A DNA stretch of 63,024 nucleotides, counting the filler, from Nemertoderma westbladi (lineage: Eukaryota > Animalia > Xenacoelomorpha), in the NCBI GenBank assembly GCA_032718475.1. It is 4 parts of 4 records of this genome, joined end to end, with 100 filler letters (N's around TTAATTAATTAA, not from the genome) between each part and the next. Parts side by side here need not be neighbours in the genome. Positions count along the whole stretch, not along the records: positions 53,693 to 63,024 come from JAUCBJ010002046.1; 3 more parts are not named here. One strand, written 5' to 3'. The position numbers and the translations under genes were made by a program. The notes beneath the pieces were generated by a model. It was not told the DNA's origin and searched no databases. It was given only the letters and a program-made list of their open reading frames with translations. Below, piece by piece: positions 17,337 through 61,779 of this stretch (its first letter is position 1; every line of letters starts with the position of its first letter).

Positions 17337-17436
17337 NNNNNNNNNNNNNNNNNNNNNNNNNNNNNNNNNNNNNNNNNNNNTTAATTAATTAANNNNNNNN
17401 NNNNNNNNNNNNNNNNNNNNNNNNNNNNNNNNNNNN
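17337..17436. other. Artificial contig linker
   Basis: N44-TTAATTAATTAA-N44, giving stops in all six frames. Confidence 0.98.
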
Positions 17437-20500: not shown

Positions 20501-21275
20501 AACTATTTTCATCCGGCACAAGAGATGAGGATCTGCGAGTTGCTGAGCTGAGAAAATATGCCATTGAGGATGGTGAATACAACCACCTTCGTGAAATAAT
20601 CTCCAAAAGTGGTTTTCCAAATACTCCTTCTGAACTGCCAGAGAATATTAGGAAATATTGGAGTGTCCATTCCGATCTTACTGTTGAAGATGGTCTTATC
20701 CTACTAGGCTGTCGTCTACTAGTCCCAGCCGCTCTTCGTGCAACAGTCTTATCACGGCTCCATGAAGCACATCAAGGTATCACCCGTACAACAGAGAGAG
20801 CACAATTCAGGATCGCCTACCAGCTCACCGTTCTTCCTTCGACCCAAAGTGGATAAAACAACATCGTACAATTGATGAACGAACAACAAATACACAGGTG
20901 AAGGCTAAAGCATACTTCGACATACATACACGGCCCAATGACTCATTCAAAATAGGGGCAAATGTTTTAATATGGAATATGATAACCCGTCGGTGGAACT
21001 TATCTGGTAGCGTTATAGAGGTAATAAACCCACGTAAATACGTTGTTCGAACTACCAGCGGGCGTATTCTAACACGCAATAGAAAACATCTACATCGCCA
21101 ACAAATACTACCTGCTGCCATTCCGGTGAACGTCAAACCGCACGTAGATCACTCGGAAAACCCACAACCAATGAACACTATGGGAAAACCAATACATTCT
21201 ACAACATGTCCACCTCCGCGTAGAAGTTCTAGGCAAGTTCGAAGACCAATACGCTTAATAGAGGAGATGGAATAA
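17536..21275 (+). pseudogene. Disrupted gag-pol: gag, zinc knuckles, protease, RT, RNase H, integrase remnants
   Basis: CGFCDIKGHLSSVC knuckle, DSGA protease, IVDD RT, ITDAS RNase H, HEAHQG integrase start. In-frame TAA at 17551 and TGA at 19447. The integrase DDE core is missing after ~20806. Confidence 0.88.
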
Positions 21276-24605: not shown

Positions 24606-25757
24606 TGTTTGCGCTTTTAAGACCTTTGACAGTTTAACCTGCCAAATTAGGATGTCTTTTGGATGATATATATTCTTTAGCTTATGACGAGTATTTGATA
24701 CACTACATTAGCCGAAGCCAGCCTATGCGCAATCATTCACCCGTTGGATATACCCGGGAGACTGAGTTCGGAGCTTAATGATTGATGGTGTAAGCCTACC
24801 GTATTATTCGACTGATCGTAATATATAATCTCTGACAAATATTATTCACTTTCGGGAAATATTAACAGTTCCTTTAGGACGTGGCGCTCTAAATATGTAA
24901 ACAGAGTTATGACTTAAACTAGTCACAACGAAAAGGCTATAGGTTAACGTATATGGCGCATTCTTTAGGAGATGCTTTGTTATCAGTTACAATCATACAC
25001 AATGCTGCACAATACTGCACACTAATCTGCCGACCTTCACTAAATTTAGTCACGTATAAAGAGAGCAACAGACAATTTATGTTGGGCATATGAAATAGCA
25101 TTAGATTCACTTCAAACCACTCAACATAGGTCGCAATCGTTTATCTGTAACCGGTCTCTCTAACCTTTAGTATATCAAGAAGGTGGGGTGTCTGACTATT
25201 GATCAGTATTCCGATATAATAATTCATCAACAAATATAACGAATAACCAACAGCAAAGCAGTAATGCAAGATATGAATTGCATAGATATGTATGATAAGT
25301 AAGTAGGGTTTGATTTTGTATGATTAGTTAAGATAACAGATATACGTTCTATAATTAAGCCTACTAATGTAAAGCTAAAGAATGCTGATATACGGAGGTG
25401 CCAAAGGCCGATGTTCTTAGGCTCTGGGCAAAAAACATAACACTGAACTACTGAGTTCTGTACACACCTCCAACACAGAGACAAAAAACGCTCTGATTGG
25501 TCAACCGAACAACGAGAGAACAAAGAAACAAAGAAACGTCGACGTGGCAATATCAGCTGTTAGCCGTCGTCATGGTAGCGACACTGTTTTCAAGAGTATC
25601 CAGCTTATCGCGTCACGAGATTGCGGATTATGTCCTCTAAAGTACAAATACAGTGCAAATACAGAAGAAATGACTTTTATGTCCTCTAAAACACCAGTAC
25701 AGCAAGGACACGGCCTTTTTATGCCTGGCAAACCAACTACAGAGTACTTCGGGAACA
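24606..25757 (-). repeat. LTR copy R1 of a putative BEL/Pao-type family (3' LTR of an internally deleted element)
   Basis: 24606-25633 is near-identical to 29739-30766. Similarity to R3 continues to ~25750. Boundary TGTTTGCGC reads ..GCGCAAACA on the element strand. Confidence 0.75.
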
Positions 25758-27556: not shown

Positions 27557-28869
27557 GTTTGTTTACCCAGTTGAATGCCTACTGCTATATTACAGTCTAA
27601 GCAAGTCCAGTAATTCAGTAATAACTGCTAGCCTAGTAATTAATTACCGATACTGCTACTCAGTGTAGCGTGCTATATATAATATTAGAATACCGGTATG
27701 CTTATGGTATATATAAGTATTATTACAGACTAGGTTTTTCACAGAAACCGGTATATAATTTTAGCACAAATATATATAAATATATAATAGGCCTATCGTG
27801 GATACCGGTATGCAGTTTACACTTATAGTATATATAAGTATAATTATTAACTAGAATTAATTACAGAATACCGGTATGATTTCAACCTAAAATTTATAGA
27901 AATAAATATAATAAGCCTATTGTAAATACCAGTATGTCAATTATTTTAGAATAATTGAATTTCTGAATTTTAAGGGTTACTTGGTTACTTTGACTTACTT
28001 TATTACCGTTATTTAAGCAGTAGTCCAACTGATATTGAGACCTAATTGTTGTATGGCAGGCCTACTATTTATAAATCGTTTGAGTTGATTTATAATATAT
28101 ATATACCCGTTTAATGGGTTTTTGTCAATGTTGAAATAAATGTTATTATTTCTGGGGGAGTCACTACACATAAGCTGTGCGCTCTCAGTGGAGTGCTACT
28201 TGTTAGACACTAAAACAAATAATTCTAATTTACCTAAGTTACTTAATACTACAAATTACGTACAATTCGGGTTGAGATTACAATCTCTAAATAAACACAA
28301 AAATTTAATTACAAATACAAATTTTTAGGGTAATTTTACAAGAAGTCTACTAACCAGCCTAACAAAGGGTTAGAAATCTGGTTATTACAACGGACAGGGT
28401 ACTAAGGTATTTGAAAATAATAAGTAGTAGTAAATACACTGCGTTGTCCAGATAGGAAAATACCACCGCCTGACGACCTATAGCCGTATCGCTATAGGTA
28501 CTACGTTATGTATCACGGAGTGTTCCTACCTAGAAGTTAATAGAGCTAACGTACGTGCCTATCAACCACTTTACAACACAAATATAATGCCTACACTAAT
28601 TACTTTCGGAAAGTACTGTACACTAAACCCTAAATTAGGTACAAGTACTTGTATAACAAATAATTAGTAGTTAAAAATACTTGAACAGCTAAAAGAACCA
28701 CGGCATCTGCTGGAGTGACCGGTGCACAAAATCACCAGTCTTTACCTACGCCGAGCAGCCCTGATGTAGTACCGGGGTTAGTTTAACTATAACGGTATGT
28801 ATAACAAACACAATTACTGTAGGAACAAACTTGGGGAATGAATGTTGCGAATAATCGCATAAACTCTGA

Positions 28870-29443
28870 ATAATAAATATTACGCTACGCGTACAAACTA
28901 CTCAAACAAAATGCAGACAAAATACTGACAGACTACTATCAAGCCTAAACAAACTACGGTATATGCAGACTCCGAAATGATTAAGTAGTATGCGTTCTAA
29001 CCCAGTAGTACGACTTATTCTTTAGATGGGGGTTTACCTTACAGCGATGGCTGCCCCTACTTCCTAACCGTTCTTTATCGGACAGATGCTTTGCACACAC
29101 CGAAATTTCCTCAAACCCAACAACAGCCAGACAACTATCCAGCCTACAAATTATCTAAATAAAATTATACGCTACCCGTACAGACTACACAAACAAAGTA
29201 CAGACCAAACGCTGGCGGACTCCTATCAGGCCTAAATAAACCACAGGACATGCAGACTCCAAAATGGTTAAGTAGTATGCGTTCTAACCCAGTAGTACGA
29301 CTTATTCTTTAGATGGGGGTTTACCTTACAGCGATGGCTGCCCCTACTTCCTAACCGTTCTTTATCGGACATACACTCTACATGCACTGCAATCCGTTCA
29401 GACCTAATCAACAGCTAGCCAACAGTCAAGCCTACAAATTATC
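28870..29443. repeat. 287-bp tandem duplication in the element leader
   Basis: 28981-29084 is identical to 29268-29371, while the flanks of the two units are more diverged. Confidence 0.9.
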
Positions 29444-29738
29444 TGTACAATCTGAGCAGGCTTACACGCCTTCTGCTCAATACTGGCCTACAAATAAATA
29501 AAACTTGACAGAAACAAGTAAAATCTCAATAAAAAACCAGGGCGGCCGTCCCTGATTAATTATTAAGGCCTACCGGTATATAATTATCAAAATCGAACAA
29601 TACTGATGTACCTGTACCGTAAGTACCGGTTCGGGCAGTTGGGCCTACAGGCCTACAGCAATACAGGTTACCGTTCAACCGGTACCGGTACTTTAGACTT
29701 GATTGCTTACACCGCAATCCAGAAGCAATATCTGTTAT

Positions 29739-30766
29739 TGTTTGCGCTTTTAAGACCTTTGACAGTTTAACCTGCCAAATTAGGATGTCTTTTGGATGAT
29801 ATATATTCTTTAGCTTATGACGAGTATTTGATACACTACATTAGCCGAAGCCAGCCTATGCGCAATCATTCACCCGTTGGATATACCCGGGAGACTGAGT
29901 TCAGAGCTTAATGATTGATGGTGTAAGCCTACCGTATTATTCGACTGATCGTAATATATAATCTCTGACAAATATTATTCACTTTCGGGAAATATTAACA
30001 GTTCCTTTAGGACGTGGCGCTCTAAATATGTAAACAGAGTTATGACTTAAACTAGTCACAACGAAAAGGCTATAGGTTAACGTATATGGCGCATTCTTTA
30101 GGAGATGCTTTGTTATCAGTTACAATCATACACAATGCTGCACAATACTGCACACTAATCTGCCGACCTTCACTAAATTTAGTCACGTATAAAGAGAGCA
30201 ACAGACAATTTATGTTGGGCATATGAAATAGCATTAGATTCACTTCAAACCACTCAACATAGGTCGCAATCGTTTATCTGTAACCGGTCTCTCTAACCTT
30301 TAGTATATCAAGAAGGTGGGGTGTCTGACTATTGATCAGTATTCCGATATAATAATTCATCAACAAATATAACGAATAACCAACAGCAAAGCAGTAATGC
30401 AAGATATGAATTGCATAGATATGTATGATAAGTAAGTAGGGTTTGATTTTGTATGATTAGTTAAGATAACAGATATACGTTCTATAATTAAGCCTACTAA
30501 TGTAAAGCTAAAGAATGCTGATATACGGAGGTGCCAAAGGCCGATGTTCTTAGGCTCTGGGCAAAAAACATAACACTGAACTACTGAGTTCTGTACACAC
30601 CTCCAACACAGAGACAAAAAACGCTCTGATTGGTCAACCGAACAACGAGAGAACAAAGAAACAAAGAAATGTCGACGTGGCAATATCAGCTGTTAGCCGT
30701 CGTCATGGTAGCGACACTGTTTTCAAGAGTATCCAGCTTATCGCGTCACGAGATTGCGGATTATGT
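29739..30766 (-). repeat. LTR copy R2 (5' LTR, interrupted by R3)
   Basis: 1028-bp near-perfect match to 24606-25633 that stops where R3 begins. Confidence 0.8.
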
Positions 30767-31997
30767 TCGCGCTTTCAGACCTTTGGCAGTTTAACCCACC
30801 AAATTAAGATGTCTTCTAGATATTAAATCGGTTTTTAGTCTATGACAAGTATTTGATTCACTACACTAGTCGAAACCAATCCGTGCGCGACCATTCACCC
30901 GCTGGAGATTCCCGGGAGATTGGGTTCGACGGTTTAATTTTGTTGCTATGTAAGCCTAATGTATTATTCGACTGACAGTATTATATAATCTCTGACAATA
31001 TTATTCACCTTCGGGAATATTAACAGTTCCTTTAGGACGTGGCGCTTTATCTATATAAACAGAGTTATGACTTAAACTACTCACAACGATATGGCTTAAT
31101 TATAATTCACATATATGGCGCATTCTTTAGGAATGCTTCTTTAACAGACTCACTCATACACAATGCTGCACAATACTGCACACTAATCTGCCAATCTTCA
31201 CTGATTTTAGTTACATATAAAAGGAACACAGACTGAATCATGTAGGGTCTATCAAATAACATTAGATTCACTTCAAACCACTTTAACATAAGTCACAATC
31301 GTTTATCTGTAACCCTTCTCTCTTACCTTCGGTATATCAAGAATATTGGGTTTCGGGGTTATTTATCGTTATTCCAAATATAATAATTCATCAACCATGT
31401 TATGAAGAACTGACAGTAAATAGCAGTATAAAACAACAATGAAAACACTGATAGTTATGAGTTTACAATGTTTCAGCAGTCAGTATGTATGATCAGTCAT
31501 CAGTAGTCGTTATGTAGGTTAAAGGATATATGCCCTTTATAATTAAACCTACTAGTGTAAAACTAAAAAACAGTAAAGCACAAAATACTTCCAAGCCGTT
31601 CTTTCTTTGGCTTAGGACTGAATGTAAACACTGCACATAGGCATTGCGTCATTTCTCGGAAATTTTCTGTACAAGGAGCCACAAAAACGCTCTCATTGGC
31701 TGACTGAACTGAGAGACGCCGTAGAACAAAGGAAATCAACACGTATGAATGTCAGCTGTTAACCGTAGTCATAGTAACTACTTTTCAAGAGTAGCTATCA
31801 CCCCTTTGCGTCACGAATTGCCATAGAATCATAAAATATGCCTTTCACAGTACACATACGGAGGAAATAGGTCTTAGATCCTCTAAAAACACCGATACAG
31901 CAATAATACGGTCTCTTACACTTATTAAATCAACTACAGAGTATTTTAATGTAAAAGATAATAAAAATAACGGGGCAATTCAGCAAAGGCTTTTACA
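30764..31997 (-). repeat. LTR copy R3 (diverged subfamily; 3' LTR of a second element)
   Basis: Diverged homologue of R1/R2. On the minus strand it starts TGTAAAAG after the purine tract GGGAGCGG (31998-32005) and ends GCGCGAACA. Confidence 0.7.
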
Positions 31998-32075: not shown

Positions 32076-33851
32076 TTAGTCTTTCTTGCGCGGACGGCGT
32101 TTACGCAGTTTCTTAAGATTAACAAGAGTCTTTTTCTCTTTGGGGCGAGCCACTTTACGAGGAGGGCTGTAGCTCCTAGGCGAAGGGTGCAATATAATTG
32201 CATCAGAAGGTGCAGGGTTACGATCGGTATACCCGCCGGTCGAGGTACCTGGTTGAGTAATATCAATCTCAGGGGAGTGAGGTCTAACGGCCTTTAGAGC
32301 GCGTCTCAAGACAGCAGCTCCTACGGGTCCTTGACGGATCGTCTGGACACTAGCGGTGGGTGGACCGTGAGTGGTGAGGAACTTTCTCGGTTTAATGGTT
32401 CTCTCCAGCTCGCGTTCTCGGGTTCGGTATTCATATGGGCGCCGAGATACTTCCTGGAGTTCAGGATGCGAGTTCACGAAAATGTCGCCATACTCAGGGT
32501 CCGTACGGATAAAATTGATCAGGTGATATGTGGTTATATCATTAGGGTTAACGTTTCTAAGGTATTTCCTGACAAACTTGGTGGAAATACACTCACCAAC
32601 ACGCTTCATTAACTCGTAACTTGGTACGCGTGTTTTCTGTTCAATCGACGCGAATAGATAAGGATGGAACGCGTAAACTCCCTCGTAAGCTCGTCCAGGG
32701 TAATAGCGATCTCTGGATTCGCAATGTAAATCTGCGTTCGCTTCCCAAGCTCGGATGTATCGCAGGGTGATCATCTCGTCTACGCTCTCTAAATCGCGAT
32801 TAAAGGGACAATTGTAACTTTCGTGTCCTTTAAGTTGGCAGTAGTGACATTGAGTCATAAATTGTGGGCAGACGGCAAATATATGAGAGTTATTAAGCCG
32901 GCAATAAGCACAATATATTTCCATCATCGGTTGTTCGAGGAAATAGGAACAAGGTACGCTCGAGTCTAGAGGAGTGAAGTGGTCTCTCGATGCGCATAAT
33001 CGACAACGTTTTCGGGAAACGTAGTTGGCGTGTCGATAATCGTACGCTGTGAGACGCTGTGGACCTTGATACCACTCTATGACATAATCATTGTCACTGC
33101 TCCGAGAAGCCGTAGGTTGAATCGCTTCGGATTCCAAGCATACTGGTTCATCCTCCAGCTGCATAGACGAAGTGGGTGCGTCGGTTTCCGTAAGTGGACC
33201 CACTGTCTGTATTTCCACGACAGAATAACCTGTAGGTATTCGGGGTCTTTGTATAACGGATGAATGTGAGTTCTGTATACAAACGTCTTGAAACACGGCA
33301 AATCCAGCGCTACTCAGTTTCTCCGCAGCTGAGTCTCTAAGACTGAGCTTGGTCAGCGCGCGATCTTTGAACTGACTATCGACGTTACGGAACGGAGTCA
33401 GAAAGCGCCGGAAACATTCGAAACGTATGAACTTATTGTGTTCGTCTAACTTGGCGAGTTTAGTTCCAAGTATTAACGGGTGAGCGCGTATGGTACGACT
33501 GCACACATCGGCTAGCCAACCGGCAAGTGCTGCGTTTTCAAAGATCGTGTATATAGCTAAGGAAGGGCGAAGTGGAACACTCATAAAGCTATATACGGCA
33601 CCAAGCGCAGTTAATGGTCCATCAAAATATAAACGGGAGTAATGATCTCCATATACTTGCTGGTAATTTATAGGATTTCCAACTTTGAAATTCCAACCAT
33701 ATTCTTGAAAGGCAAGATGTCCGATGGATGTCCGTTGTACTTTAGTAATGCCGCTGGGTGTATTGGCATACATAGTGCGAAAGAAACCTCGGCCTTCGGC
33801 CCAAGGAGCAATCAGCTGAGTATCAACGAAAGGGTATGGAATGTTCTCCAT
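32076..33851 (-). CDS. 591-aa protein of unknown family with multiple Cys/His zinc fingers and a basic C-terminus
   Basis: CRLCASRDH, CAYCRLNNSHIFAVC and CHYCQLKGHESYNC (CCHC knuckle), ending KKLRKRRPRKKD. Homologous to 53693-55279. Confidence 0.8.
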   Translation of the reverse strand: MENIPYPFVDTQLIAPWAEGRGFFRTMYANTPSGITKVQRTSIGHLAFQEYGWNFKVGNPINYQQVYGDHYSRLYFDGPLTALGAVYSFMSVPLRPSLAIYTIFENAALAGWLADVCSRTIRAHPLILGTKLAKLDEHNKFIRFECFRRFLTPFRNVDSQFKDRALTKLSLRDSAAEKLSSAGFAVFQDVCIQNSHSSVIQRPRIPTGYSVVEIQTVGPLTETDAPTSSMQLEDEPVCLESEAIQPTASRSSDNDYVIEWYQGPQRLTAYDYRHANYVSRKRCRLCASRDHFTPLDSSVPCSYFLEQPMMEIYCAYCRLNNSHIFAVCPQFMTQCHYCQLKGHESYNCPFNRDLESVDEMITLRYIRAWEANADLHCESRDRYYPGRAYEGVYAFHPYLFASIEQKTRVPSYELMKRVGECISTKFVRKYLRNVNPNDITTYHLINFIRTDPEYGDIFVNSHPELQEVSRRPYEYRTRERELERTIKPRKFLTTHGPPTASVQTIRQGPVGAAVLRRALKAVRPHSPEIDITQPGTSTGGYTDRNPAPSDAIILHPSPRSYSPPRKVARPKEKKTLVNLKKLRKRRPRKKD

Positions 33852-33992
33852 ATTCCTGTTGTATGCCCAATATGTTTTCCGACAGTGACATTGATGGTAG
33901 TGGTAGAGAGCAGGGGGAGACCTAGGTCGTATTCAGAAGTATTCCGAAATACGATCTCAGTAGGAGGATTGTTACATTCGAGGACTATCTCC

Positions 33993-34092
33993 NNNNNNNN
34001 NNNNNNNNNNNNNNNNNNNNNNNNNNNNNNNNNNNNTTAATTAATTAANNNNNNNNNNNNNNNNNNNNNNNNNNNNNNNNNNNNNNNNNNNN
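33993..34092. other. Artificial contig linker
   Basis: N44-TTAATTAATTAA-N44. Confidence 0.98.
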
Positions 34093-34829: not shown

Positions 34830-35207
34830 ACATGTAGTGCAAATATGATAACGAAAAGTCACCACAAAATCAAATTGAGTTTAGCACAAATTTGATAATA
34901 AAAAATCATCACTAAATCAACCTGATTGTTAGATATTATGGGTTTTCTGGGACGCTGATCACGAATATGACACTCAAAAATATCGCATTACCCAGCCAAA
35001 TTCTATTTTTGACGTTTAAAATTTTTTGATTCTTGTATTTTTCGTCCCTCCTGAAAAGCACCAAAAATGATAGTTGCGTTACCACGAATGATTTTTAACG
35101 AGTTGTATCGTGATTAGCGACGTTGAAAACCAGTATAGTTTCAGAAATACCAAACCAAAGGCAAAATTTAACAGTTTATAATTTTGTGCAATTTGTAATT
35201 TTTATTG

Positions 35208-38023
35208 TGTGGAGGTCCGGTGGAACCGACGACGGAGTCAGTCCGTGGCGTGACGTCGGTACCGGAGCGAACCGTCCGACCGTATCCCAGAGTTGAGGGA
35301 GGATCGTGGACGGCGAGTGCTGGGCGCCCGTAGCCGGCGGAAGGAACTCGCCCGGGATGGTGAGGGGGGCACCGTAGACCAGCTCGGCGGAGGAGGTCCC
35401 CAAGTCGTCCTTGGGAGCGGTCCGGATTCCGAGGAGAACCCACAGCAACTCGTCGACCCAATCGGGGCCGGTGAGCGAGGCCCGCAGGGCGGACTTTAGG
35501 TGGCGGTGGAAACGTTCCACCAGTCCGTTTGCCTGCGGGTGGTAGGCCATGGTGCGGTGCAGTTGGGTGCCCAGCAGCTGGTTGACGGCGGATCAGAGCT
35601 GGGAGGTAAACTGCGAACCGCGGTCGGAGGAGAGATCCGCGGGGATGCCGAACCGAGATATCCAGTTGGAGATGAGAGCCCGGGCGCAACTCTCGGTGGA
35701 GGTCTCGGTGAGGGGCATGGCCTCTGGCCACCGAGTGAACTGGTCTACCATCGTCAGCAGGTGAGTGAACCCGCGCGATGGTGGTAGAGGGCCGACCAGA
35801 TCCACGTGGATGTGGTCAAACCGGCGGTGGGGGGTGGCGAAGGTGCCGAGGGGCGCGCGGACGTGGCGTTGCACCTTGGAAGACTGGCAAGGGATGCAGG
35901 TCTTCGCCCATTCGCCCACCTCTTTGCGGAGGCCGTGCCACACGAACCTGTCAGCGACGAGTTTCTTGGTGGTACGAGCGCCGGGGTGAGACAGGCCGTG
36001 TAGGGCGTCGAAGATGCGCCGTCGCCAGGCGACGGGGACGACGGGGCGCGGGTGTCCGAGAGAAACGTCGCAAAGTAGAGTGGCGTTGGCGGGGGCGAGC
36101 GGGACGTCTTCCAGTTGGGGGCCGGACACGGCGGAGCGGTAGGTTGGCAGCTCGGGGTCGGCGAGTTGGGCAGCCGCCATAGCCGTTTAGTCGAGGGCAC
36201 GGAGGAGGGTTCGAACCGCGCTGACGGTTGTCCTGGAGAGCGCATCCGCCACACAGTTGTCTTTGCCGGCGATGTGTTCGATCGCCGTGGTGAACTCGGA
36301 AATGTAGGCGATGTGCCGTTGTTGCCGATTCGACCACGGGTCGCTGATCTTGGTGAATGCGAACGTCAGGGGTTTGTGGTCTGTGTAGGCGGTGAATACG
36401 CGGCCCTCCAGGTAGTACCGGAAGTGGCGAACAGCGAGGTACAGCGTGAGGAGTTCCCGGTCGAACGCGCTGTACTTCACCTCTGGGGGGTCGAAGTTGG
36501 CGGCTGAAGAACGCCAGGGGGCGCCACGAGTCGCCGACGAGCTGTTCTAGAATGGCGCCCACCGCCGTGCCGGATGCGTCCACGGTGAGCGCCGTCGGTG
36601 CATTGGCGTTGGGGTGGGCAAGCATCGTGGCGTTGGCGAGGGCTTCCTTGGTGTTCCGGAATGCTGCCGCCATGTCGGGGGTCCAGTCGAGGGACTTGGG
36701 TTTACCGGCAAGGGCCGCGTAGAGGGGCCGCATGATGGCAGCGGCCGCGGGGACGAACCGATGATAGAAGTTCACCATCCTCACGAACTCCTGCAGGCCC
36801 TTGACGGTGGTCGGCTGGGTGAACTCCCGGATGGCGGCGACCTTGTCGGGGAGCGGGACGGCGCCGTGGGCCGAGATTCGGTGGCCGAGGAAGTCGATGG
36901 TCGACTGACCGAACTCGCACTTGGCGAGGTTGATCACGAGGCTGTGTTCTTGGAGGCGCGTGAAGAGCTGACGGAGGTGGTCACGGTGTTCCTTGGGGGA
37001 CCGACTCGCGACGAGGACGTCGTCTAGGTAGACGAAGAGGAAGTCGAGTCCCTGGCACACCGTGTCCATCAGTCTCCGGAAGGCCTGGGCCGCGTTCTTC
37101 AGCCCGAATGGCATTCGAAGGAATTCAAACAGGCCGAACGGGGTTATAACCGCGGTCTTGGCGATGTCGGCCTCGGTTACGGGGATCTGGTGGTAGCCGC
37201 GCACCAGATCGATCTTAGAAAAGATCTTCGCCCCAGCCAGTCTGGAGGAGAAGTCCTGGATATGGGGGATGGGGTATCGGTCCGGAGTCGTGGCGTCGTT
37301 GAGGCGTCGGTAGTCGCCACACGGCCGCCATCCACCCGAGGGTTTAGGGGCCATGTGGAGGGGTGACGCCCAGGGACTGTTGGACCGGCGGATGATCCTC
37401 ATCTCCTCCATCTTCCGGAACTCGTCCCGCGCGATCTCGAGTTTGTCTGGAGGCAGACGACGGGTGTGGGAGTAGACCGGGGGTCCCTCGGTGGGGATGT
37501 AATGTTCGACCCCGTGTTTCGTGGTTGGGTTGGAGAACCGAGGGATCGTAATATCGGGGAACTCGGCGAGGAGCCGAGCGAACTCGTCGTCCGAGGCGGT
37601 GACAGAACCGAGGTGGGGGGCGTGGCCCATAGTCCGCCCGCACGGGATCGAGGTCAACGTCTCGGCGTCGACCAGACGGCGGCCTCTCAGGTCGACCAAT
37701 ATGTTGTTCGCTCGGAGGAAGTCGGCTCCGAGGAGAGGCTGGGCGACGTTGGCCGCGATAAACTTCCACTGGAACTGGCGGGAGTGGAAGTCGAGTTTGA
37801 CGGAGCGGTCGCTGTACGTTCGAATGTACGTTTTGTTGGCGGCGAGGAGGGGGGGCCCGCTCTGTCCCGAACGTTCCTCGCGAGTCGTCATGGGAATAAC
37901 GCTTACCTCCGCCCCGGTGTCGACCAAGAAGCGTTGCCTGGAAACGCGGTCCCAGGCAAACAGCAGCAGGTTGGTGTGGCCGGCCGTTGTAGCTGCTACA
38001 AACGGCCGGCCGGGGCGTTTCCC
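35208..38023 (-). pseudogene. pol: Pol (PR-RT-RH-IN), disrupted
   Basis: LVDTGA, YLDD, VDASG, HGLSHPG, HVDLVGPLP, SDRGSQF and YHPQANGLVERFHR. Frameshift at the G-run near 36485; stops at 36187 and 35593. Confidence 0.9.
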
Positions 38024-38700
38024 TGGTAACTGCAGGGCGGGCGGCACTTCCTGGCTGTGGGGCCGAACGTCTGGTGATAATAGCACCAGTCTGGGTTCGA
38101 GTTCGGGGCACGCGGGGCGGGAGTCGACGCCGACGATGAGTTCTTGCTGGTTCGCTGCGGCGGGACCGGCGTCGGTTTCCCTACGGCATGGGCCGCGAGT
38201 GAGGTCTGCCAGGAGGCCTCCCACAGCGCGTCGGCCCGGTCCGCAACCCTGTTGAGGTCGCGGAAGTCCTCCTCCGCGAGTTGGAGGCGGATTGCGGCGG
38301 GCATCTGCCGGAGGAAGGCCTCCTCAAAGAGGAGTCCCGCATTGTCGTCGCCGAGGAGCGCCTGCATTTCTCCGAGGAGTTGCGAGGGGCGCCGGTCACC
38401 GAGGCCATCTAGGTCCCAGAGTCGGGCTGCGCGCTCGCGTCGGGAGAGCCCGAAGGCTTTGAGAAGTTGGCCCTTGAGTTTGAGGTACTTCTCAGTAGCG
38501 GGAGGGTTCCGGATGAGTTTTAGGAGGCGAGCGGCTGTCTCCTGGTCGAGGGCCCCCACCACATAATAATATTTTGTAGCGTCCTCGGTGATGCTGCGAA
38601 TGTGGAACTGTGCCTCCGTCTGGGCGAACCACACCTCGGGTTGGGTGGTCCAGAACGGAGGCAGTTTAATAGAAACGGCGTTGGCGGTCGCTTCGCCCAT
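37996..38700 (-). CDS. gag: Gag (CsRn1-type)
   Basis: [42 protein letters not shown] and the CHCC motif. ATG at 38700, downstream of the PBS. Confidence 0.85.
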
Positions 38701-39150
38701 TGTCGTCAACACAGTTTCGGTGGCTGTTCCAGTTCGATTGCAGGATCGTGTTGCGAGTCGCGGTCTCAAGAGTTCGTCTTGAGACACTGGGTCACCAATG
38801 TAGTGATGGGTTCTAGCCACGAAATGAAAACTTATCAAAACTCAAGTTCGAGTCTTTGCTGAAGGCATACTGCAGTACAGTCGTACAATTCTGTAGGTCG
38901 GCCTAATAACAGAATACGTTATTCTCTAGGGTTGCTAGGTAACCGTAATAACAAAGTTTTGAGACTGTATATTGTATGTGGGGCTGCCACATTTTATAAT
39001 ATTATATTTCAAAAAATTTGCAATATGTAATTATGATGTTAAAGTTATTCATCAACGCAGTCATATTAGAAATCAATAATAATACAATAACATAACATAA
39101 CAATAACAATAACAATATTATAACATTAATAATAATCAATACCGGAATAC

Positions 39151-40164
39151 TTAATTATCATAAACGAACTCCAAACCAGTTCCTTCTAAGTGGTGTTTCT
39201 CCCACTGATCCATTATCGCTAGCTGTTCTTCACTAAAGTGATTCTTCCAATCTCTGACCCCACCTTTCCTTATAAACTTTCCATGAATAATATTACTCTT
39301 ATTAACAGCATTATTCTCTCTCATGTTTTTAAATGATAAATGATCTTCTAATTTAGCTATTTGCTCTTCAGCCAGGGATTTCCCTAGAAAATCAGCTGTT
39401 TTTTTAATGACCCCCGCCAGGTCTTACTTCATATCCTCAAACCTTAGGAACAACACATTTTCCCTGCCTCTAATTTTCCAGTATCCAAGGTAATGCTGCA
39501 AAGCTGGGGTATATAAGCCAGAAACATCATTGACGAAGGCGTTGAAATACACATCCCATGGTCCTGTGTATCCCATTATTTGCCAATGGTAAAACAGTGA
39601 CACACATGCGTCTCTGGGATTACGTATAATGTGAATGATTTTCGGCTGCTTTTCTCCAATCTCGTATGGGAGCATATCAATTGACAAATGTGTTTTAATA
39701 ATTCTAGGTGAAGATTTTGATTCAGCTAATTCTAAGGATGTGTTATATACTCTTGTATCGCTATCTTCGTGCAGGCAGCTATTAATATACATTTTATACT
39801 TTTCCTCACTAATTGCTTTGGAGCCCTCCAAAAACGGGACCCTTCTCTCTAAGTCAATCTTTTTGGCAAGTTCGGTATTAACGTCATTCATAATACACCA
39901 AACCATATCTTTTGTCCATGTTGTACCACATTTGGGAAAAGTACAAATCCAGACATCATCAAGTCGCACAGGAAATTCAAATATTTTCTTTTGATATTCT
40001 GTTGTGTATATTCTGGCAAGAACTTGTCCACTTGGTTGGAATTTAACTAACCCTGGAAAGGCAGTAGTACCTGTACCGGTAAAATTATTTGTAAATTATT
40101 TTATAAGATTTTCTTCAATTTCTTCTGTCCAGACCTCACTTTTGCGAGTTGAGAAAGAAGCCAT
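39151..40164 (-). pseudogene. Intronless cytosolic sulfotransferase (SULT) pseudogene
   Basis: TFPKCGTTW (5'-PSB), IIKTHL, RNPRDACVS (3'-PB) and FIRKGGVRDWKNHF in one frame from ATG 40164 to TAA 39151. In-frame TAA at 40096-40098 and 39424-39426. Confidence 0.85.
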
Positions 40165-53592: not shown

Positions 53593-53692
53593 NNNNNNNN
53601 NNNNNNNNNNNNNNNNNNNNNNNNNNNNNNNNNNNNTTAATTAATTAANNNNNNNNNNNNNNNNNNNNNNNNNNNNNNNNNNNNNNNNNNNN
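53593..53692. other. Artificial contig linker
   Basis: N44-TTAATTAATTAA-N44. Confidence 0.98.
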
Positions 53693-55279
53693 TATAATAT
53701 AATAATCTTATTGTCAGGGTGAACATGTAGGAAGTAGTCCCTAACAACTTTGAAACCGCTATCCAACGGCAATATATCTGGTACCTCCAAAAGTTCGTCG
53801 TATTGAGGCATAGCTATCCTTCCTTCGACATGATGAGAGCGTTTACGGCCCAAAATCCCAAATGCGCTCTCATGGGGAAACGGCATCGCTGCGTCGACAC
53901 ATGTTCATCTGCTGGATTCTCCCAATGGTCGAATAACTGTCGAATAATTTTAACTGACATATGCTCATAGGGAACGTCCCTAAGTTGGCATTCAGATGCC
54001 CTATGACCTTTAATATTACAATATGTGCAGTGCATTGAGCCACGAAACGCCAGAAGGTGTAGAAAGTGTGTGAACGTTGATCCCCATACCAGTTGTATAC
54101 TAAATCTGGTAGAGATATATGTTTCGCTCCACATTTCTTTGCGTGATGGCCAGTAGCCCAAATAGCCAAATAGACCAAATAGCAGCATCTGCCACAAATG
54201 GTATTGGCAGGATACCAAACTTGCTCATAGATGAGATCTCCGATAGGGCGAGCTCTACCCTCCACGTGATAATTCCCATCATCCGGGTCAGTCAGTACGT
54301 TCGTCTCCGTGGGTTGTACACAAACCATGGCGTCGCTTTTCTCTAATTCGCGTATCTCGGTTCGCATCTTCCTCTTAAGATTCTCCTCTATCTCTATGAG
54401 TTGCCGCAACGGCTCGTCTATTATCACAGACTCGGTCGGATCCTCATCAACATGATGGGTGGTAGGCGCGCGCGCCTTCCAGGATCCTTCCGGGCCTTTG
54501 AACTCTGCGTGACGTTCCCCGTCGTAGGGTACTAACGTCAACATCAATGGTCTGCCGACTAGGCTTCCCACGTGAGTGAGATAAACGTCCCTAAAAACGC
54601 TAAGTCCTGCTCGCGTGAAAACTTCGCAATTTGCATCCGTGTTATAAAAGGGTTAGAGAAATCGGCGGAATACATCTGTATGTGTCCTTCCTCTATCGTA
54701 AATTGTATGTCCTTCGCAGAGACATAACGGATGTCACTTTAGAGTCCTAGACACTACACCGGTGATGAAGCACACATTTACCGAAGATTCAATCGCCAAA
54801 TAGTATTGCAAGATTATTCGTGGAGGTGAGGTAATCGCCCAATACACGCATCCTCGCCACTTCAGTTGTGGCTCAAACTCGTTTACGCCAGGGGTATCTC
54901 CCTCACCGTATACATCCGTGTATTTGCTCCTCTTACTCTCTTTATAATCCCAACTAAACATGAGATATGAGATATAACCCTTTCCAGTTTTTAGCGTGTT
55001 ATACTCCCTGAAATATCCTTGCTCGATAGCCCAAAGCAACAATGGTCTAGTATCCACGTAAGGCGTAGGCAATCGATCCTCCTCCTTGGGCATTCCTGCA
55101 AAATTGCTAATAAGGTCCTCCCATACACCGGATCCGATCTTGACGATACTCTTATTAAGTACAATGTCATGTACGGCCTTTGGCAACATCTTAGCTTCTA
55201 TGCTACAAGCCAGGTCCATGGATTTAATTATCCGTTTTATCATAGCGTGTCTTTTCATCGTTCCTTCCGGCATCGGCAT
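53693..55279 (-). pseudogene. Disrupted homologue of the 591-aa zinc-knuckle protein
   Basis: PTPYVDTRPLLLWAIEQGYFR vs PYPFVDTQLIAPWAEGRGFFR; FRRFL*PFYNTD vs FRRFLTPFRNVD; AGLSVFRDV vs AGFAVFQDV; CTYCNIKGHRASEC vs CHYCQLKGHESYNC; VRDYFLHVHP vs VRKYLRNVNP. Contains stops and frameshifts. Confidence 0.8.
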
Positions 55280-55381
55280 CTTTCTGTCGCTCCTCTGTCA
55301 GCTGAAGACGTGTATGTAGCACTCCATCAGGTGCTCGAATCTGTATGGTACGATTTTCTGAACTACACAACAGCGCCGCCT

Positions 55382-56053
55382 CTAACACATCACCAAACGT
55401 AACCGATGGGAGGAAATCCAGGTTCGAAATGATCTCCGGGATTCAACTATGGGAATCTCGTAAGTTGTCTCCTCTTGGGTTGGTATACTAATAGGAAAGC
55501 TGGTTGTTCTGGCGACCGGTACTACCACTTTGGTAGGATGGGGCTGAGGTTCTCGCGTCATCTCAACATGAGGTATCTGTAGTCTCTGCGACAAACGCTG
55601 AGCAAAGGTGATACTATTGAAGAGTTCGGGTATCATCTCCTTAGGTTCGGTTTGATCGTAGGATATCCAATAAAATGGTAGGCTCACGAGCCTTCTGCCG
55701 AACTCCTCGATCTCGCCTTTCTCATATGCTTTGTACGCCCTATAGAGGCTCAAAGCTTCCCGTTTCTCTTGTGTCGACTTATTAGACTCGTCTACTATCA
55801 TACTATAGATGTCTGGTTCGACTAATTTGGGTTCATAAATGACAATTTCGCCCGCGTTCGGTCCACTCATCTTAAACAAGTGGTACGGATTCGTCAAATG
55901 GTATCCGCCTTCTTGGTAACGCAGACTTTGGTGGTATAAACATCGTGCTAGTATCGGCTTGGGGTTCTCTGAGTTCAAGTATATAGGAATCGCATTGTTT
56001 TGCTCACGCATACATCCTCCACATTTATAGAACAGTTTATAAATGGAGAACAC
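55382..56053 (-). CDS. Hypothetical accessory ORF (up to 223 aa; start uncertain)
   Basis: Open, complex-composition ORF tightly packed between same-strand neighbours, with a CGGC..CLYH motif. Confidence 0.5.
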   Translation of the reverse strand: MFSIYKLFYKCGGCMREQNNAIPIYLNSENPKPILARCLYHQSLRYQEGGYHLTNPYHLFKMSGPNAGEIVIYEPKLVEPDIYSMIVDESNKSTQEKREALSLYRAYKAYEKGEIEEFGRRLVSLPFYWISYDQTEPKEMIPELFNSITFAQRLSQRLQIPHVEMTREPQPHPTKVVVPVARTTSFPISIPTQEETTYEIPIVESRRSFRTWISSHRLRLVMC

Positions 56054-56065
56054 ATCCTTGGTCTC

Positions 56066-56390
56066 TTAATCCGCTCCTCGAGCGCGTCTATAAAGATGCA
56101 TTCCATCGAATTCGTCCCTAGCTGCAGGCAAGGGTTCACTCGCCGTCAAATATTGAAGCATGTGATATAATCGGCGTATCTTCGTGTCTGGATCCTCGCA
56201 AATGTCGCTAGCGTCGCATAACACATCGTAGGGGTACAACGCATTGAACACCGCACGTAACTCCTCCGCTCTTTTGTTATAAGCGTCCAACCACTGTCTC
56301 GTAACATTCGGGTCCGCCTTGGATTTAGCGAGCTTGGCCGTACTCATAGCCATACTCTCCACTCCAAACACGTTAAAATTTTGGCTCCAT
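56066..56390 (-). CDS. Hypothetical accessory ORF (~100 aa; possible 5' frameshift)
   Basis: ORF 56066-56371. The ATG at 56390 is one base out of frame, and a TATATAAG box lies ~60 nt upstream (56446-56453). Confidence 0.4.
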
Positions 56391-57179
56391 ATCGATTAAA
56401 CGGCGCCTGGTGCTCCTGCTCCTGCGTAAATCCCTGACGTAACTCCTTATATATCTTCTCCGCCATCATATACACGTATATATGGTTACGTATAGTTACG
56501 TTCTACTAGATGAAGCACAAATAGAGGTTAGATGTGAGGAGATTTGGAGTTTTGTCGGCTTTTGGCTCAACTTTGCTCTAAAACCCCTACCCATTTGCCT
56601 AAGACTTTGGGTTTTGAATGATTTCGCACTGGCTCCTAATCCAAAACAAAATGTGCCGATAAAAAACGAATTCCGGATAAACTAGCCGCGAGTCTAAAAT
56701 ACTCACCTTTTAATCCCAAACTACTTCCCAAAGAAAATAGTGCAGTCGAGAATTAATTCGGTCTAAAATAATAGTAGACACGACTACGTAGAACAAGGCC
56801 GATTTTCTTTTCCAAAAAAATTTATCGGTAGGCTCGCAAGCCTTCCATCCGCTCTTGTCCTCCCCAATTTTAATTTTTATCTAGCTGTATCCTAGAATCC
56901 ATATCCACTGGAGAATCGTTTTTCCTAAATTTAAATCCAAATGAATGGATTATGGATTTGTCTAATAATTTTGAAAATTGTCTCACTTGTGGGTTCCAAG
57001 TGGAATTCCATTCCTACTGTACACACAATCCCGCTCCTATGTGATACATAAGGGTACTACCCTCTATGTTCACATATAAAGATAATGGAATTCCACTGCT
57101 GCCTTTATCTACAGTGAAGAGGAATACAAATGTACATACAGTAATACAAAATACCAAAAATCGCTAAAATACAGTAAGG

Positions 57180-59062
57180 TTATGTGGCGACCATCAAGGG
57201 TCCCACATCTCTATTTACTGAGATTGGGTGGAGATTTGTAGTCCCTGTCTCGTTTCTAGTCTCCTCAAGGAGCACGAGACGTTGTACAGGCCTATCTATG
57301 GTACAACCGCAATAGTCCGTACAGTAACTGTCCTTACTACACCTGATGTCGGGTGCGTGGTCAAAATGACTCCAGTCAGCCAAAAGATCAAAGAAAAATC
57401 TCAAACATCGGGTATTAAGATACCAAGAGGTTCGAGTCGAAATAGAGGGCAAATAGTGCTTCTGCCATATTTCCCAGAATTTGTTAGCTAACAATTGAGT
57501 GATTTTCCAAGCTTTGTTGCCATATCCGTCACTATCGACAGGTACCGAAGTGGGCAACAATGTCGTCGGCGCGTGCATAAACAGGTCCGCTGGTGTCACG
57601 GCAAACTGTGAGTCATTGTTGTCTGGGATCAAAGCGATTGGTCGAGTGTTTAACACTGATTCGAATTCTATTAACAACGTCGTCAGTTGGTCGTCTGATA
57701 AGATGCGTTGTGTCGGTATTACTTTCACCATAGCCGTCTTAATTGACCCAATCAGTCTTTCCCAAATGCCGCCTCTCCACGGACTGTCAGAAGTGTTAAA
57801 GCTTCAGACATTATGGTGAGGACGTAGTTCATCGGAAATCTGGTTTTGGTCCAACCTCTTTAAGGCTCTAGTGATTTCATTCCATGCACCTACAAAGTTA
57901 GTCCCTTGGTCGCAATAAATGGATTTGACCAATCCATGTCTAGCAATAAATCGCCGTAAAGCTAGGATAAAGGCGTTGGTAGTTAAATCTGTCATATGCT
58001 CTATATGGATAGCTCTGCTGGCCATGCAAGTGTTTCAGTGTTTCATCAATCCCCAGTGTTTTACCTGTACCCTTACCCCCTCAAATACTTAACTTAACCC
58101 CTCGAGATTATGGGTCCAAAACAGTCTATCCCTGTCTCAGTGAAAGGGGGTCTAAAGGCCTGTAACCTTGCTAATGGTAGTTCACTCATCTCTTGGTGTC
58201 CTATCCTCGCATGCACCTTCTTACAAATAATACAGTTTCATGTTAACGAACTCAATGCCTTGCTAGGCCTAATCAGTACAAACCTCAAGCGTAAGTGTGA
58301 TAGACAGTGATGCCTACCTACGTGTTTGAGTCGTACATGTGCGTCCAGTATCATAATGCGCTGTAATTCATGGTGTTGCGGTATGATGATAGGATACCTA
58401 AAATCTAGTGCGAAGTCAATGTTTTGGAGTCTGGACTCTTTGTCTATGACAAAGTAAGCCCTTATAAATTATCGGACTCCAACTCAAGATCGGTGAAGAC
58501 TTGATCTGTTTACCCTGATTGATAGCTGTGAATTCTCGTGAGAAATATCGCAATTGATAATGTCTGATAATATCAACTTCACAAAGACCAACTTCATCCA
58601 AGGTAAGTCTTCTAGGAAAGTTGCGTTTGCCTCTGGCATATTGTCTCAAACATTTGAGCCATGCTAACTTGCGGCACGCGTCAGTCCATGATGTAGTTAG
58701 GTTAACTATCCTGTCAACGTAAGTGTTGGTGACGTCATCAGGAAACATTTGAGCCATGCTAACATGCGGCACGCGTCAGTCCATGATCTAGTTAGGTTAA
58801 CTATCCTGTCAACGTAAGTGTTGGTGACGTCATCAGGTAAGGTATAGTCAAAGTGTGCGTACTTGTTCGGACTTGGTAGGCCCACAGGCCTTCCGGTGAG
58901 TGTCTCCTTTTGTACAATAGGTTTGTCTGAGTCCTCAAGTATTTCAATCTCCACGGTCTTACTTTTACCATCCGCACTCAGTGAATTGACTGGCAGTAAC
59001 GGTTTCAATTCTACGGTATCGGTGTGTTCCTGTGGGCTTGTAAGCCTCCTAACCTTAGTCAC
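57180..59062 (-). pseudogene. BEL/Pao retrotransposon pol 3' part (integrase and C-terminal domain), decayed and 5'-truncated
   Basis: CMASRAIHIE..LTTNAFILALRRFIAR..YCDQGTNFVGA, ESVLNTRPI, KFWEIWQKHYL and RPVQRLVLLE. Frameshifts, including a 95-bp tandem duplication at 58648-58837. Confidence 0.9.
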
Positions 59063-61779
59063 GCGTTTACCTGTAGACTGTACTTGGGTTTGGGTGGGGG
59101 TAGTGTTTGATTATAATAAACAGCATGATCAATTCTCAAGTTTATATATTATTATACGTCCATATTATATTATACTTTATCAACACATTGACTGAGACGA
59201 TATTATTTTAACCTACTCTCCTCCTGATCTCCGCAGCATTTAGAATTCCCTGGCAAAACTCTTCTTCGCAATCTCCTCAATTTATTGGCACATACATATC
59301 GCTCTTCGATTGTCTCCCATGGGCGAACTATACGAACTGTACGCGCGTGACGGCGTTTATTGAGTGGGGTTTTTTTGGTTGGTTGAATGGATGAAGACAA
59401 AACTCTCATGTTCTTGGCAGACTCTACTCCGTCCTTGATCCGCTCACATCACAGTAGGCCAAGCCTATCTTTATTTGATTTGTTATTTACTTTAGGCCTA
59501 TTAAATTTTTATTTATATGTTGAAGCTTTATATTTACTTTGTATTTACTTGTGTATTATTGACCGGACCCTTATTACCTCAGCTTTTTGTGACCGGACCC
59601 ATAATCTTGTAACATGCCTTAACTTTCGTTTAATGTTTTGGTTCCCACCAACGCCAACACATGAACATGCCTCTGGAACCTGGTCCTTTACTAATCTGCT
59701 GCCTGCTCCTTTCTGCCTTTAATTAAATGGCAATGGGTCTGGTCAACGGGTCCTGTCAATTGAGCAAAGGGTCCGTTCAGTAGATTTTGCCCAGTTAGGC
59801 CTACTGTATTACAGAGTTAAGGTTAACGGCCATCATTCATGCCTAGAAACCTGCCCTGCTAACCAGACACGCTACACGCTATTATACCAAACGTTTGTTT
59901 ATATGCTTGAATCATGTTGACATGTTTTTTTTCTAAACTTGTTTTAATCAACATGTTATTTTAACATCTAAATAACATAATATCCAATCATGTTATAATC
60001 AAACATTTGTTGATCACGTTTTTATGATACCTAAATGTAACATGTTTTATCATGTAATTATTTAACATTTGTTTTACACGTTATTGTGTAACATAAATCA
60101 TACATGTTTATTCCAGCTGTTTGTTAAATGCTACTTTGTCGTGTTGAACAAACGTCCTGTACATCATTGCTGCATTGCCAATATGTTTTAAGGCTGTTTG
60201 AATAAACCGCCTAAAATTTACCGCCAAATTCGTTTATAGGCCTATAAATCATGCAGCAGTGCATGCAGTACTGCAGTACATCAGTCAGTCAGTAGACACT
60301 CCACTGCCTGCCCCAGCTTACCAGCACCCACTCAGCCACATTCTGAGAGCTTGACAGTAGTGCTGCAGGTAGGCAGTGTGTAGGCCAGCTGTTTACTGGT
60401 TTAAGTGCTGCAATAGGGTTGACCATACTGCCATATGTTTGTTTACTGCCGTATGCCTATATTAACTGTTTTAAGTTATTTTTAATTAAGCTTCATACTG
60501 CCTGACTGCTGGACTGTCATATAAACTGATAAATCTTTTTATATTATACATTATATGTTATATAGGCCTACATAACATATATAATACATAATACTGTAAT
60601 ATATGTCATATACATTATATATTATTTATGTACATTATATAGGCCTAGGCCTAGCAGCCTAGCCTAATTGTATTGTAATACCAGAATACAGTAATATGTC
60701 TGTATGTAATGCAGTCAGGCAGTGCAGTGCCAGTAATTCGATGACGACGATAGTTTAGATTGGGCTCTGTCTTCCTGGCGCTGGTTGGTCGAAACAACAG
60801 GCAAGCCTGCAAGCGGCAAAGGCTGCACTGGCAGACTGGCTGACTGGAAAAATATTATGGCCTCCTCGAAATGCCGGCCTACTACCGGTACAGCGGTACG
60901 TTGGAAAGAATTTTCGAATCCAGATCTTCTGTCAACTGTCAAGTTGGCCCACATTTAATGCGAAGGTTCTTCACTTAACAGGTTTGTATTGAACTTGAAT
61001 AGGCTTCTTACACATCGTTATTTCAGTGATTCAAGTGATTAAAATCCTAATCCTGTAATCTATTTGGATCAAATAGAGGGAAAAAGCGCCGGCGGTCGGA
61101 AGTAAATTACACATGCGGTCCCAGGCAGCCAGCTAAAGATACGCATCAGATTCTGGCGATGAGGTTATTATTTTACTTACTACTAGGCCTTGCTGTTAGG
61201 TTAGGCCCACTTGGTACTTTGGGCCGTTTATAAATCGTCAGATCGTGCATATGCTTAAACTGTAATTTAAAATAAAACATGCCTTACTCTGGCTATCTAT
61301 GGTAGGTAAGTAAATGTTTGCTTTATTTTTTACTCATTTCCTCTTTATAAACCAGTCCCCAGTGCAGTGGTAATGTGAAACAGTCTGTGATGGGTTGTGG
61401 TGACTTGTGCACGTTGATCTAATTGCTCCAATGCTATATGTATATATATTATTATCATTTTAGGTGGAATATATGAGCGACAATGAATCCAATCATGTTT
61501 CCAATACGATACTCACACTGATTACCCAGACAACTAACAATACGTTGATCATTGATACTCAGAGGTGAGTTGTGATACCGCCTCTCCCTCTATCTACAAC
61601 CTAACCCTATTCTAAGACAACACTAAACTCTAGACTTACCTAACCAAACCCTTTCACCAAGCTACCACTATATATCCCATGGCGATATTTTCTCGAAATA
61701 TTTTCCAGTCTCGATGTTTTATATATCGAGACGCTTTTTTATACTTTTGGAAGCAGAGGCAGAAGTTGGGCGAGACAGA

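Follow-up and report, generated by a model that had tools for sequence, protein, structure and literature searches.

A probable long, non-envelope third open reading frame behind a BEL/Pao integrase of Nemertoderma westbladi, taken apart by decay

Introduction

What does a BEL/Pao retroelement carry behind its integrase when the coding DNA found there resembles neither an envelope (env) gene nor an immediate 3′ long terminal repeat (LTR)? The question is raised by a contig of the xenacoelomorph Nemertoderma westbladi (JAUCBJ010002046.1, assembly GCA_032718475.1), at the left end of which the remnant of a BEL/Pao pol gene is followed, on the minus strand, by non-coding DNA and by coding DNA that an initial annotation had read as a cassette of three small accessory open reading frames (ORFs). 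The window, i.e., the whole stretch of 63,024 nucleotides analysed here, joins four contigs by N spacers at 17337-17436, 33993-34092 and 53593-53692; the locus in question lies in contig 4, and a homologue of its coding DNA lies in contig 2. BEL/Pao elements are described as animal-only (PMC8742986), and the third genes mentioned for them in the portions of the literature drawn on here are env-like only (PMC8742986; PMC3118150, PMC13524379, PMC554778).

The explanation favoured here, with moderate confidence, is that contig 4 holds a dead, 5′-truncated copy of a multi-copy BEL/Pao element in which the integrase is followed by a 710-nt spacer and by a single non-env third ORF (ORF3) of about 1,100 codons, likely expressed from a spliced mRNA and encoding a predicted RNA-binding and possibly RNA-trimming protein. 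The apparent cassette is most likely an artefact of decay, and the long orphan ORF3 is real. Other copies of the element were compared by aligning to the window the contigs of four public DNA runs (X1-X4, from three studies), one of which is possibly the source of the window itself; the depth of aligned contigs reported below is not a copy number.

One probable broken gene behind the integrase

The coding DNA behind the pol remnant and its homologue are the following.

53693..56469, minus strand: ORF3, most probably a single long ORF, now broken, with 925 codons or more before it runs off the contig (common frame, contig 2 homologue, other copies)
32076..33932, minus strand: ORF3 homologue of element A in contig 2, unbroken C-terminal 618 amino acids (aa), truncated where the contig ends and bearing two Cys/His knuckles plus a basic tail (translation, protein alignment)

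From the first ATG at 56469 to the contig end there are 925 codons. Three stops (56066-68, 54734-36 and 54653-55) interrupt them, and the frame shifts near 56380 and 55440, between ~55310 and ~55230, between ~54200 and ~54030, and probably also near 53820. The 41-codon frame that starts at this ATG overlaps the next piece near 56380, and the five pieces that follow (56395-56066, 56065-55382, 55297-54734, 54733-54653 and 54652-53870) share one common frame. The proposal of three separate ORFs, in which pieces of 187 and 260 aa had been overlooked, does not agree with this arrangement, nor with the two further lines of evidence provided by the contig 2 homologue and by the other copies.

The homologue aligns with the contig 4 ORF3 at 27% identity over 211 columns (E 9e-16) and, in another frame of contig 4, at 33% identity over the knuckle region (E 1e-4). 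It is stop-free and aligns across two of the ORF3 stops, both of which fall inside conserved blocks. Moreover, it extends about 200 residues beyond the last aligned position, so that the whole ORF3 is likely near 1,100 aa. There is no match between the two at the DNA level, and a likeness retained in protein but not in DNA points to long selection on the protein.

The comparison of the breaks with other copies covered 54600-56560 and considered differences present in at least 70% of the depth. Other copies differ at the stop at 56066-68 in all four runs (99-100% of depth) and likewise at the stop at 54734-36 (98-100% of depth). They show a length difference at 55440-41 in four of four runs and at 55365-67 in one of them, and other-copy contigs end loose at 56379-82, again in all four. 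The pieces are thus, as judged from translation and alignment, most probably parts of one ORF, and the multi-ORF cassette is rejected on the grounds of the common frame, the stop-free homologue and breaks that other copies do not share. What stands of the initially proposed lineage with a conserved nucleic-acid-binding cassette is the non-env coding DNA with zinc knuckles, present in at least two distant families; the division into several ORFs falls. The locus carries a more general caution, in that decay made one gene resemble a cassette. Some members of the family are internally deleted in the N-terminal segment of ORF3, one contig each in X3 and X4 skipping 259 bp at 55935-56195.

A dead BEL/Pao pol remnant

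The DNA upstream of ORF3 contains the following features.

57180..59100, minus strand: decayed 3′ part of a BEL/Pao pol, with linker, HHCC zinc finger, DD(49)E core and DUF5641-like C-terminus (six-frame translation, Pfam, depth)
58648..58840, minus strand: tandem duplication of ~95 bp in pol, 97% identical

In six-frame translation the integrase motifs, which form the last domain of pol in contig 4, span from ~58470 to 57180 and are interrupted by stops, frame changes and the ~95 bp duplication. The zinc finger reads H-x4-H-x29-C-x2-C, and in the core 49 residues separate the second D (57911) from the E (57761); the gypsy integrase of contig 3, counted identically as a control, has 35. A DD(45-53)E spacing is a hallmark of BEL/Pao, with Sinbad and Saci-1 being DD(49)E in the part of the source drawn on here (PMC554778). 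Pfam matches are weak and under the cut-off (DUF5641 E 1e-4, rve E 4e-4, Integrase_H2C2 E 6e-4). DUF5641 is presumably the C-terminal region of BEL-type integrases. On the basis of the DD(49)E core, the HHCC finger and the DUF5641-like end, the integrase is of the BEL/Pao type, as had been annotated.

Upstream of ~59100 no Pfam match is found in three frames of 58899-61600, and contig 4 contains no reverse transcriptase (RT), RNase H, protease, gag or 5′ LTR. In BEL/Pao the integrase stands last in a pol of the order PR-RT-RH-IN, and gag bears a triple Cys-His box. The depth of aligned contigs is high and unbroken over 53693-58972 and falls from ~20,000 to 350 between 58972 and 59237 (run X1). 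Together these results indicate that the contig 4 copy is a 5′-truncated, dead BEL/Pao element. Just upstream of the truncation point, 59501-59764 is a separate abundant repeat of very high depth in four of four runs, and the far end of the contig (61627-63024) is a 21-bp minisatellite that is open in several frames.

The state of this copy is also reflected in its substitutions. Against the majority of other copies in run X1 it shows 120 differences over 1961 places, of which 63 fall in the two transition classes with A or T as the outcome here. A former CpG context is found at 14 of the 36 listed places with such transitions, against a background of 23% (p 0.02). Among the 40 substitutions shown out of 161 in the comparison, two at breaks were left out, and 14 of the remaining 38 private differences fall at third codon positions (p 0.38), with no sign of selection. 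This pattern fits neutral decay after insertion.

Linkage of pol to ORF3 and its predicted expression

Between the pol stop and the first ATG of ORF3 lies the region that was initially described as non-coding DNA with a TATA-like box.

56470..57179, minus strand: non-coding spacer of 710 nt, 37% GC, from pol stop to first ATG; likely the intron end of a spliced ORF3 mRNA (translation, LTR comparison)
56506..56531, minus strand: predicted 3′ splice site with branch-point word, 19-nt tract of 79% pyrimidines and YAG; located 37 nt ahead of the ATG and unique in the spacer

The non-coding character of this DNA is borne out, and no LTR of the window's family is seen there, the best match of that family in contig 4 having an E of 2.6. 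The linkage of pol to ORF3 is supported by other copies. One other-copy contig bridges the junction of pol end and spacer (56953-57290, run X4 record 30) and another that of spacer and ORF start (56149-56530, run X4 record 29), and these copies diverge 6-13% from the contig 4 copy; as both junctions recur in divergent copies, the linkage is not a one-off. ORF3 is thus very probably part of the BEL element.

The TATA-like box does not survive inspection. The sole TATAWAW word of the spacer region is found at 56453, that is, 16 nt downstream of the ATG (56469), and the word occurs in 922 of 2000 shuffles of the spacer; it is probably coding sequence inside the first codons of ORF3. The predicted splice acceptor is a better expression signal. 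Its pattern, which was defined only after the site had been seen and to that extent counts against the prediction, occurs in the last 100 nt of 16 of 2000 dinucleotide shuffles and anywhere in 94 of 2000. LTR elements typically use spliced messages to express an ORF3, according to the part of the source drawn on here (PMC5408684), and a translation of this ORF3 from an env-like spliced mRNA is accordingly a prediction to which somewhat more than even weight is given.

The relative in contig 2 and its LTRs

The 3′ end that is beyond the contig end in contig 4 can be seen in contig 2, in a different family.

30764..31938, minus strand: LTR A, 1175 bp, TG...CA; it is the 3′ LTR belonging to element A, nested in LTR B1 and 137 nt beyond the stop of ORF3
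24606-30763, minus strand: element B, with LTR B1, a 2.2-kb leader, a first ORF and LTR B2

The initial annotation had placed here a homologue of the last ORF, a purine tract and an LTR. The homologue and the LTR are found as described, the LTR 137 nt after the stop of the ORF. The purine tract is rejected, the 30 nt before LTR A containing 10 purines with a longest run of 4; runs of 12-13 purines fall inside the ORF (32141) and inside LTR A (31324). A polypurine tract of ~10 nt before the 3′ LTR is typical of Belpaoviridae (PMC8742986), and its absence, which concerns the contig 2 family only, lowers the status of this LTR family as a typical belpaovirid and leaves the integrase call unaffected. 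The TG...CA LTRs measure 1175 bp (A) and 1136 bp (B), within a BEL/Pao range of 0.2-1.2 kb; contig 4 ends before the LTR of its own family is reached. As the initial model had itself declared, it is stitched from two contigs, and these hold two different families with 27-33% protein identity, so that an architecture of pol, ORF3 and LTR in one element is inferred by joining them.

Element B is young, internally deleted and pol-less. Its LTRs (B1, 30763-29739, which lost roughly its first 110 bp when element A inserted; B2, 25741-24606) are 99.8% identical over 1029 bp. Its first ORF (27562-25640, 641 aa) is coiled-coil-rich with no Pfam match, and LTR B2 cuts directly into it. No 18-nt primer-binding site (tRNA-Arg/tRNA-Gly) is evident by eye after LTR B1. 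A 292 bp tandem duplication (85% identical) occupies 28865-29444 in the leader. LTR A is 81% identical to LTR B, and a third member of the LTR family (70-74%) lies on the plus strand at the start of contig 3 (34093-34833); a block of ~30 bp is identical in all members and may be a promoter or R-region signal.

What the ORF3 protein may be

The composition of the protein suggests nucleic acid binding rather than a role at membranes. Three segments carry the domain candidates.

53988..54029, minus strand: CX2CX4HX4C zinc knuckle of ORF3 (Pfam zf-CCHC E 0.005, under cut-off)
54780..55440, minus strand: candidate RNase D-like DEDDy 3′-5′ exonuclease domain, central ORF3 (hhalign; first-motif region broken)
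55730..56110, minus strand: N-terminal beta-rich segment with ADP-ribosyltransferase-like motif order, a lead only (Atlas feature score)

As judged from the predicted protein, ORF3 has no membrane segment: the hydropathy maximum (19-residue Kyte-Doolittle mean) is 1.35 over eight contig 4 pieces and 1.19 in the contig 2 ORF, whose C-terminus is complete. The charged N-terminal 41-codon piece shows no signal peptide by eye, in agreement with the initial reading. The knuckle noted in that reading is confirmed by the homologue, as CX2CX4HX4C is common to both copies and aligns between them (E 9e-9). A second Cys/His motif precedes this common knuckle in the contig 2 homologue, the basic tail of which has 13 K/R among its last 25 aa. 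The lack of any hydrophobic segment above 1.35, together with knuckles and basic tail, led to the rejection of an env identity.

The middle of ORF3 resembles, in what we take from inspection by eye, the RNase D/WRN exonucleases. Profiles of RNase D were built from 30 bacterial PF01612 domains. When the two-copy alignment was compared with such a profile by hhalign, the second exonuclease motif came into register over 44 columns (E 0.02; 41-44 columns across the comparisons), with 1 of 100 shuffles as good. Taken singly, the contig 4 piece is equalled by 2-3 of 60 shuffles and the contig 2 piece by 1-2 of 60, and the same RNase D stretch is best for both. Against the RNase D profile the two pieces rank 4 and 5 among 94 natural pieces. 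The Exo II aspartate aligns, and by eye both copies contain Y-x3-E, where the Exo III consensus is Y-x3-D. The Exo I (D-x-E) region is broken in the contig 4 copy and missing in contig 2, and an AlphaFold model from the two-row alignment is poor (predicted local distance difference test score, pLDDT, 31). On these comparisons a DEDDy fold of the central domain is an evenly balanced proposition.

For the N-terminal segment the order of the H/R-Y/S-E motifs, presumably that of ADP-ribosyltransferases (ARTs), is the starting point. Atlas gives 0.77 to PARP clusters (86 of 256 features), a score below the lead limit of 0.9 that shuffled proteins often reach. A poor single-sequence model (pLDDT 44) places the strands in an ART-compatible order. 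Among the Foldseek or VIA matches listed (best Z 4.4) there is no ART, nor does another family stand out, and no ART is found by Pfam or PDB. An ART-like nature of this segment is therefore rather doubtful.

Searches for relatives of the whole protein returned little. Word-index searches found none for the ORF3 with stops read through, and none, among longer proteins only, for the contig 2 ORF and the N-terminal segment. The contig 2 ORF gave a single phmmer match among 1.84 billion proteins (E 7.5e-4), confined to the knuckles of an unrelated knuckle protein, and a best Atlas score of 0.77 to an unnamed entry. Viral and metagenome contigs contain no related loci, and a 24-base LTR word has 0 matches in viral and metagenome collections. 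The best tblastn match to phages has an E of 4, and no ORF3 relative is present among PDB sequences, PHROG and NCBIfam. In the open literature no BEL/Pao element with a DEDDy or ART ORF3 came to light; such elements could be present in Repbase, in subscription journals or in the supplements to PMC3118150 and PMC5408684, which this search did not extend to. The word "exonuclease" occurs 0 times in the main text of PMC3118150, PMC13524379 and PMC12440569, and the portions of PMC12451622 and PMC12440569 drawn on here add nothing further on BEL/Pao third genes.

Alternative explanations

A number of results weigh against the explanation proposed here and are considered with the alternatives that they bear on. 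The alternative that survives best, itself unlikely, accepts a single ORF3 but not the exonuclease: the central domain would be no exonuclease, or a dead one, and the product an RNA-binding or scaffold protein of a new family, e.g., a silencing suppressor or an RNA transport adaptor. It draws on the blank library searches, as the exonuclease domain has no match in Pfam (including DNA_pol_A_exo1), NCBIfam, PHROG or PDB, and on a profile signal at the 2-5% level. The hhalign probability of the RNase D match is 2%, and in the ranking of natural pieces three unrelated ones stand above those of ORF3. An eight-sequence WRN-like profile is matched as well by 63 of 100 shuffles; the piece expected to hold the first exonuclease motif yields no sensible alignment (5-7 of 60 shuffles), and no clear D-x-E first motif is present in the contig 4 copy. 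With HMMER, neither of two home-made exonuclease hidden Markov models placed the ORF3 region among the 12 best of 1260 tiles. Against this alternative, both copies choose the same RNase D stretch, and there is a precedent in rotifers in the part of the source drawn on here (PMC5408684).

Quite improbable is an origin of the ORF from a different element beside a BEL remnant, for example as the gag-like ORF1 of an LTR family, with the spacer as leader or LTR. CCHC knuckles are typical of gag, and the spacer is the deepest part in two of the four runs: its bins are deepest in X1 and X3 but not in X2 and X4, with the integrase bins close, and an LTR-like repeat could have the same effect. The middle of the spacer is bridged by no single listed record. 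No contig in the window carries pol, ORF3 and LTR together, and the contig 2 element is of a different family, with no pol in the window. Set against these points are the other copies that bridge both junctions, the position of LTR A in contig 2 directly after the ORF rather than after pol, and the quite different first ORF that the sister element B has behind its 5′ LTR. In addition, there is no AATAAA poly(A) word, and the window holds no second copy of the spacer.

A true cassette of at least three small accessory ORFs with its own TATA promoter is very improbable. Stops do separate the pieces in this copy, a TATAWAW word does exist at 56453, and for one stop (54653-55) and one frame change (near 55300) no difference in other copies was among those listed, so that they were not seen as private. 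Nevertheless, the pieces lie in a common frame, the homologue is stop-free across two stops, other copies depart from this one at two of the stops and at two of the frame changes, and the TATA word follows the first ATG and is frequent in shuffles. Finally, a divergent envelope or cell-to-cell transfer protein is barely credible, since the env-like position behind pol with a predicted splice acceptor, and the env-like genes known in BEL/Pao from the portions of the sources drawn on here (PMC8742986, PMC13524379), face a protein with no segment above 1.35 in either copy (the contig 2 C-terminus being complete), no signal peptide by eye, and knuckles and a basic tail that indicate nucleic acid binding.

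A possible mechanism and comparison with known systems

If the single spliced ORF3 is accepted, the full element would produce a genomic RNA and a spliced RNA that skips gag-pol, in which the 5′ leader would be joined to the acceptor at 56506 in the manner of env mRNAs. The spliced RNA would be translated into a large soluble protein that may bind RNA through its knuckles and, with the basic tail as a nuclear signal, may enter the nucleus. The central DEDDy-like domain might trim the 3′ ends of the element RNA, of its primer or of host small RNAs, and such trimming could help the element to copy itself or blunt silencing. This role of ORF3 in RNA-end processing or anti-silencing is tentative, held with less than even confidence. 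A more far-reaching version, in which env has been replaced by a spliced 1,100-aa counter-defence protein combining ART-like, RNase D-like and knuckle domains that acts against silencing both by trimming small RNAs and by modifying nucleic acids or host factors, is unlikely.

Host proteins offer a possible model of the activity. MUT-7/Nibbler, EXD1 and Maelstrom trim or bind small-RNA ends. None of them gave a sequence match to ORF3 in the Pfam or PDB searches. They are listed as DEDDy proteins of small-RNA pathways in the part of PMC5408684 drawn on here. The statements that follow on known retroelements likewise refer to the portions of the cited sources drawn on here.

ORF3s of the RNase D-like, non-env kind have been described in gypsy elements of rotifers and in Terminons (PMC5408684, PMC5718144, PMC6431247), and a DnaQ-like domain is a known accessory domain (PMC6338049). 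For the rotifer DEDDy ORF3s, 3′-end processing of element RNA or a role in silencing was proposed, with the activity unproven (PMC5408684). The closest resemblance, by description, is to Juno and Vesta of bdelloid rotifers (PMC5408684), which also have a non-env ORF3 behind pol without membrane segment, with spliced expression described there, a candidate RNase D-like domain, a Cys/His motif and a proposed role in RNA 3′ ends or silencing. However, Juno and Vesta are gypsy-type whereas the present element is BEL/Pao, and ORF3 is here a multi-domain protein of ~1,100 aa, in which CCHC knuckles and a basic tail are joined by a further N-terminal domain, and its exonuclease is weakly supported. 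The Terminon (Athena) is also a retroelement with DEDDy-like accessory genes, but Terminons are Penelope-like, lack LTR and integrase and carry many separate ORFs (PMC6431247). Within BEL/Pao, the placement of a third gene between a BEL-type integrase and the 3′ LTR is shared with Tas, Cer7, roo and the mosquito elements with chuvirus-like glycoproteins (PMC554778, PMC13524379, PMC8742986), from all of which this ORF3 differs in having no signal peptide, membrane anchor or glycoprotein match. The ICTV profile gives gag, pol and env only and a length of 4.2-10 kb (PMC8742986), a range that is likely too short for a full element, given an LTR of 1.2 kb, a leader of 2 kb and an ORF3 of 3.3 kb.

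A non-env ORF3 of 3 kb, retained as protein in two families without DNA similarity, would be a costly cargo that must pay its way. If the exonuclease is true, DEDDy ORF3s, so far unexplained in the gypsy elements of rotifers, would be present in another LTR superfamily as well, and a system that is multi-copy and recently active would be at hand in which RNA-end processing or escape from PIWI-interacting RNA (piRNA) silencing could be probed.

Other features of the window

Two further retroelements, both of gypsy type, are present: a decayed gag-pol with RT and RNase H on the plus strand (17554-21275), and an element of 63% GC on the minus strand (35176-38841) with DUF7041 gag, RT, RNase H and a DD(35)E integrase. 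The stretch 39151-40095 (minus strand) is a host-type cytosolic sulfotransferase sequence (Sulfotransfer_1, E 1e-41 and 8e-21) with no evident intron and an in-frame stop at 39424-26, possibly a processed pseudogene. Tandem arrays with units of 68, 56, 30 and 206-215 bp occur elsewhere in the window.

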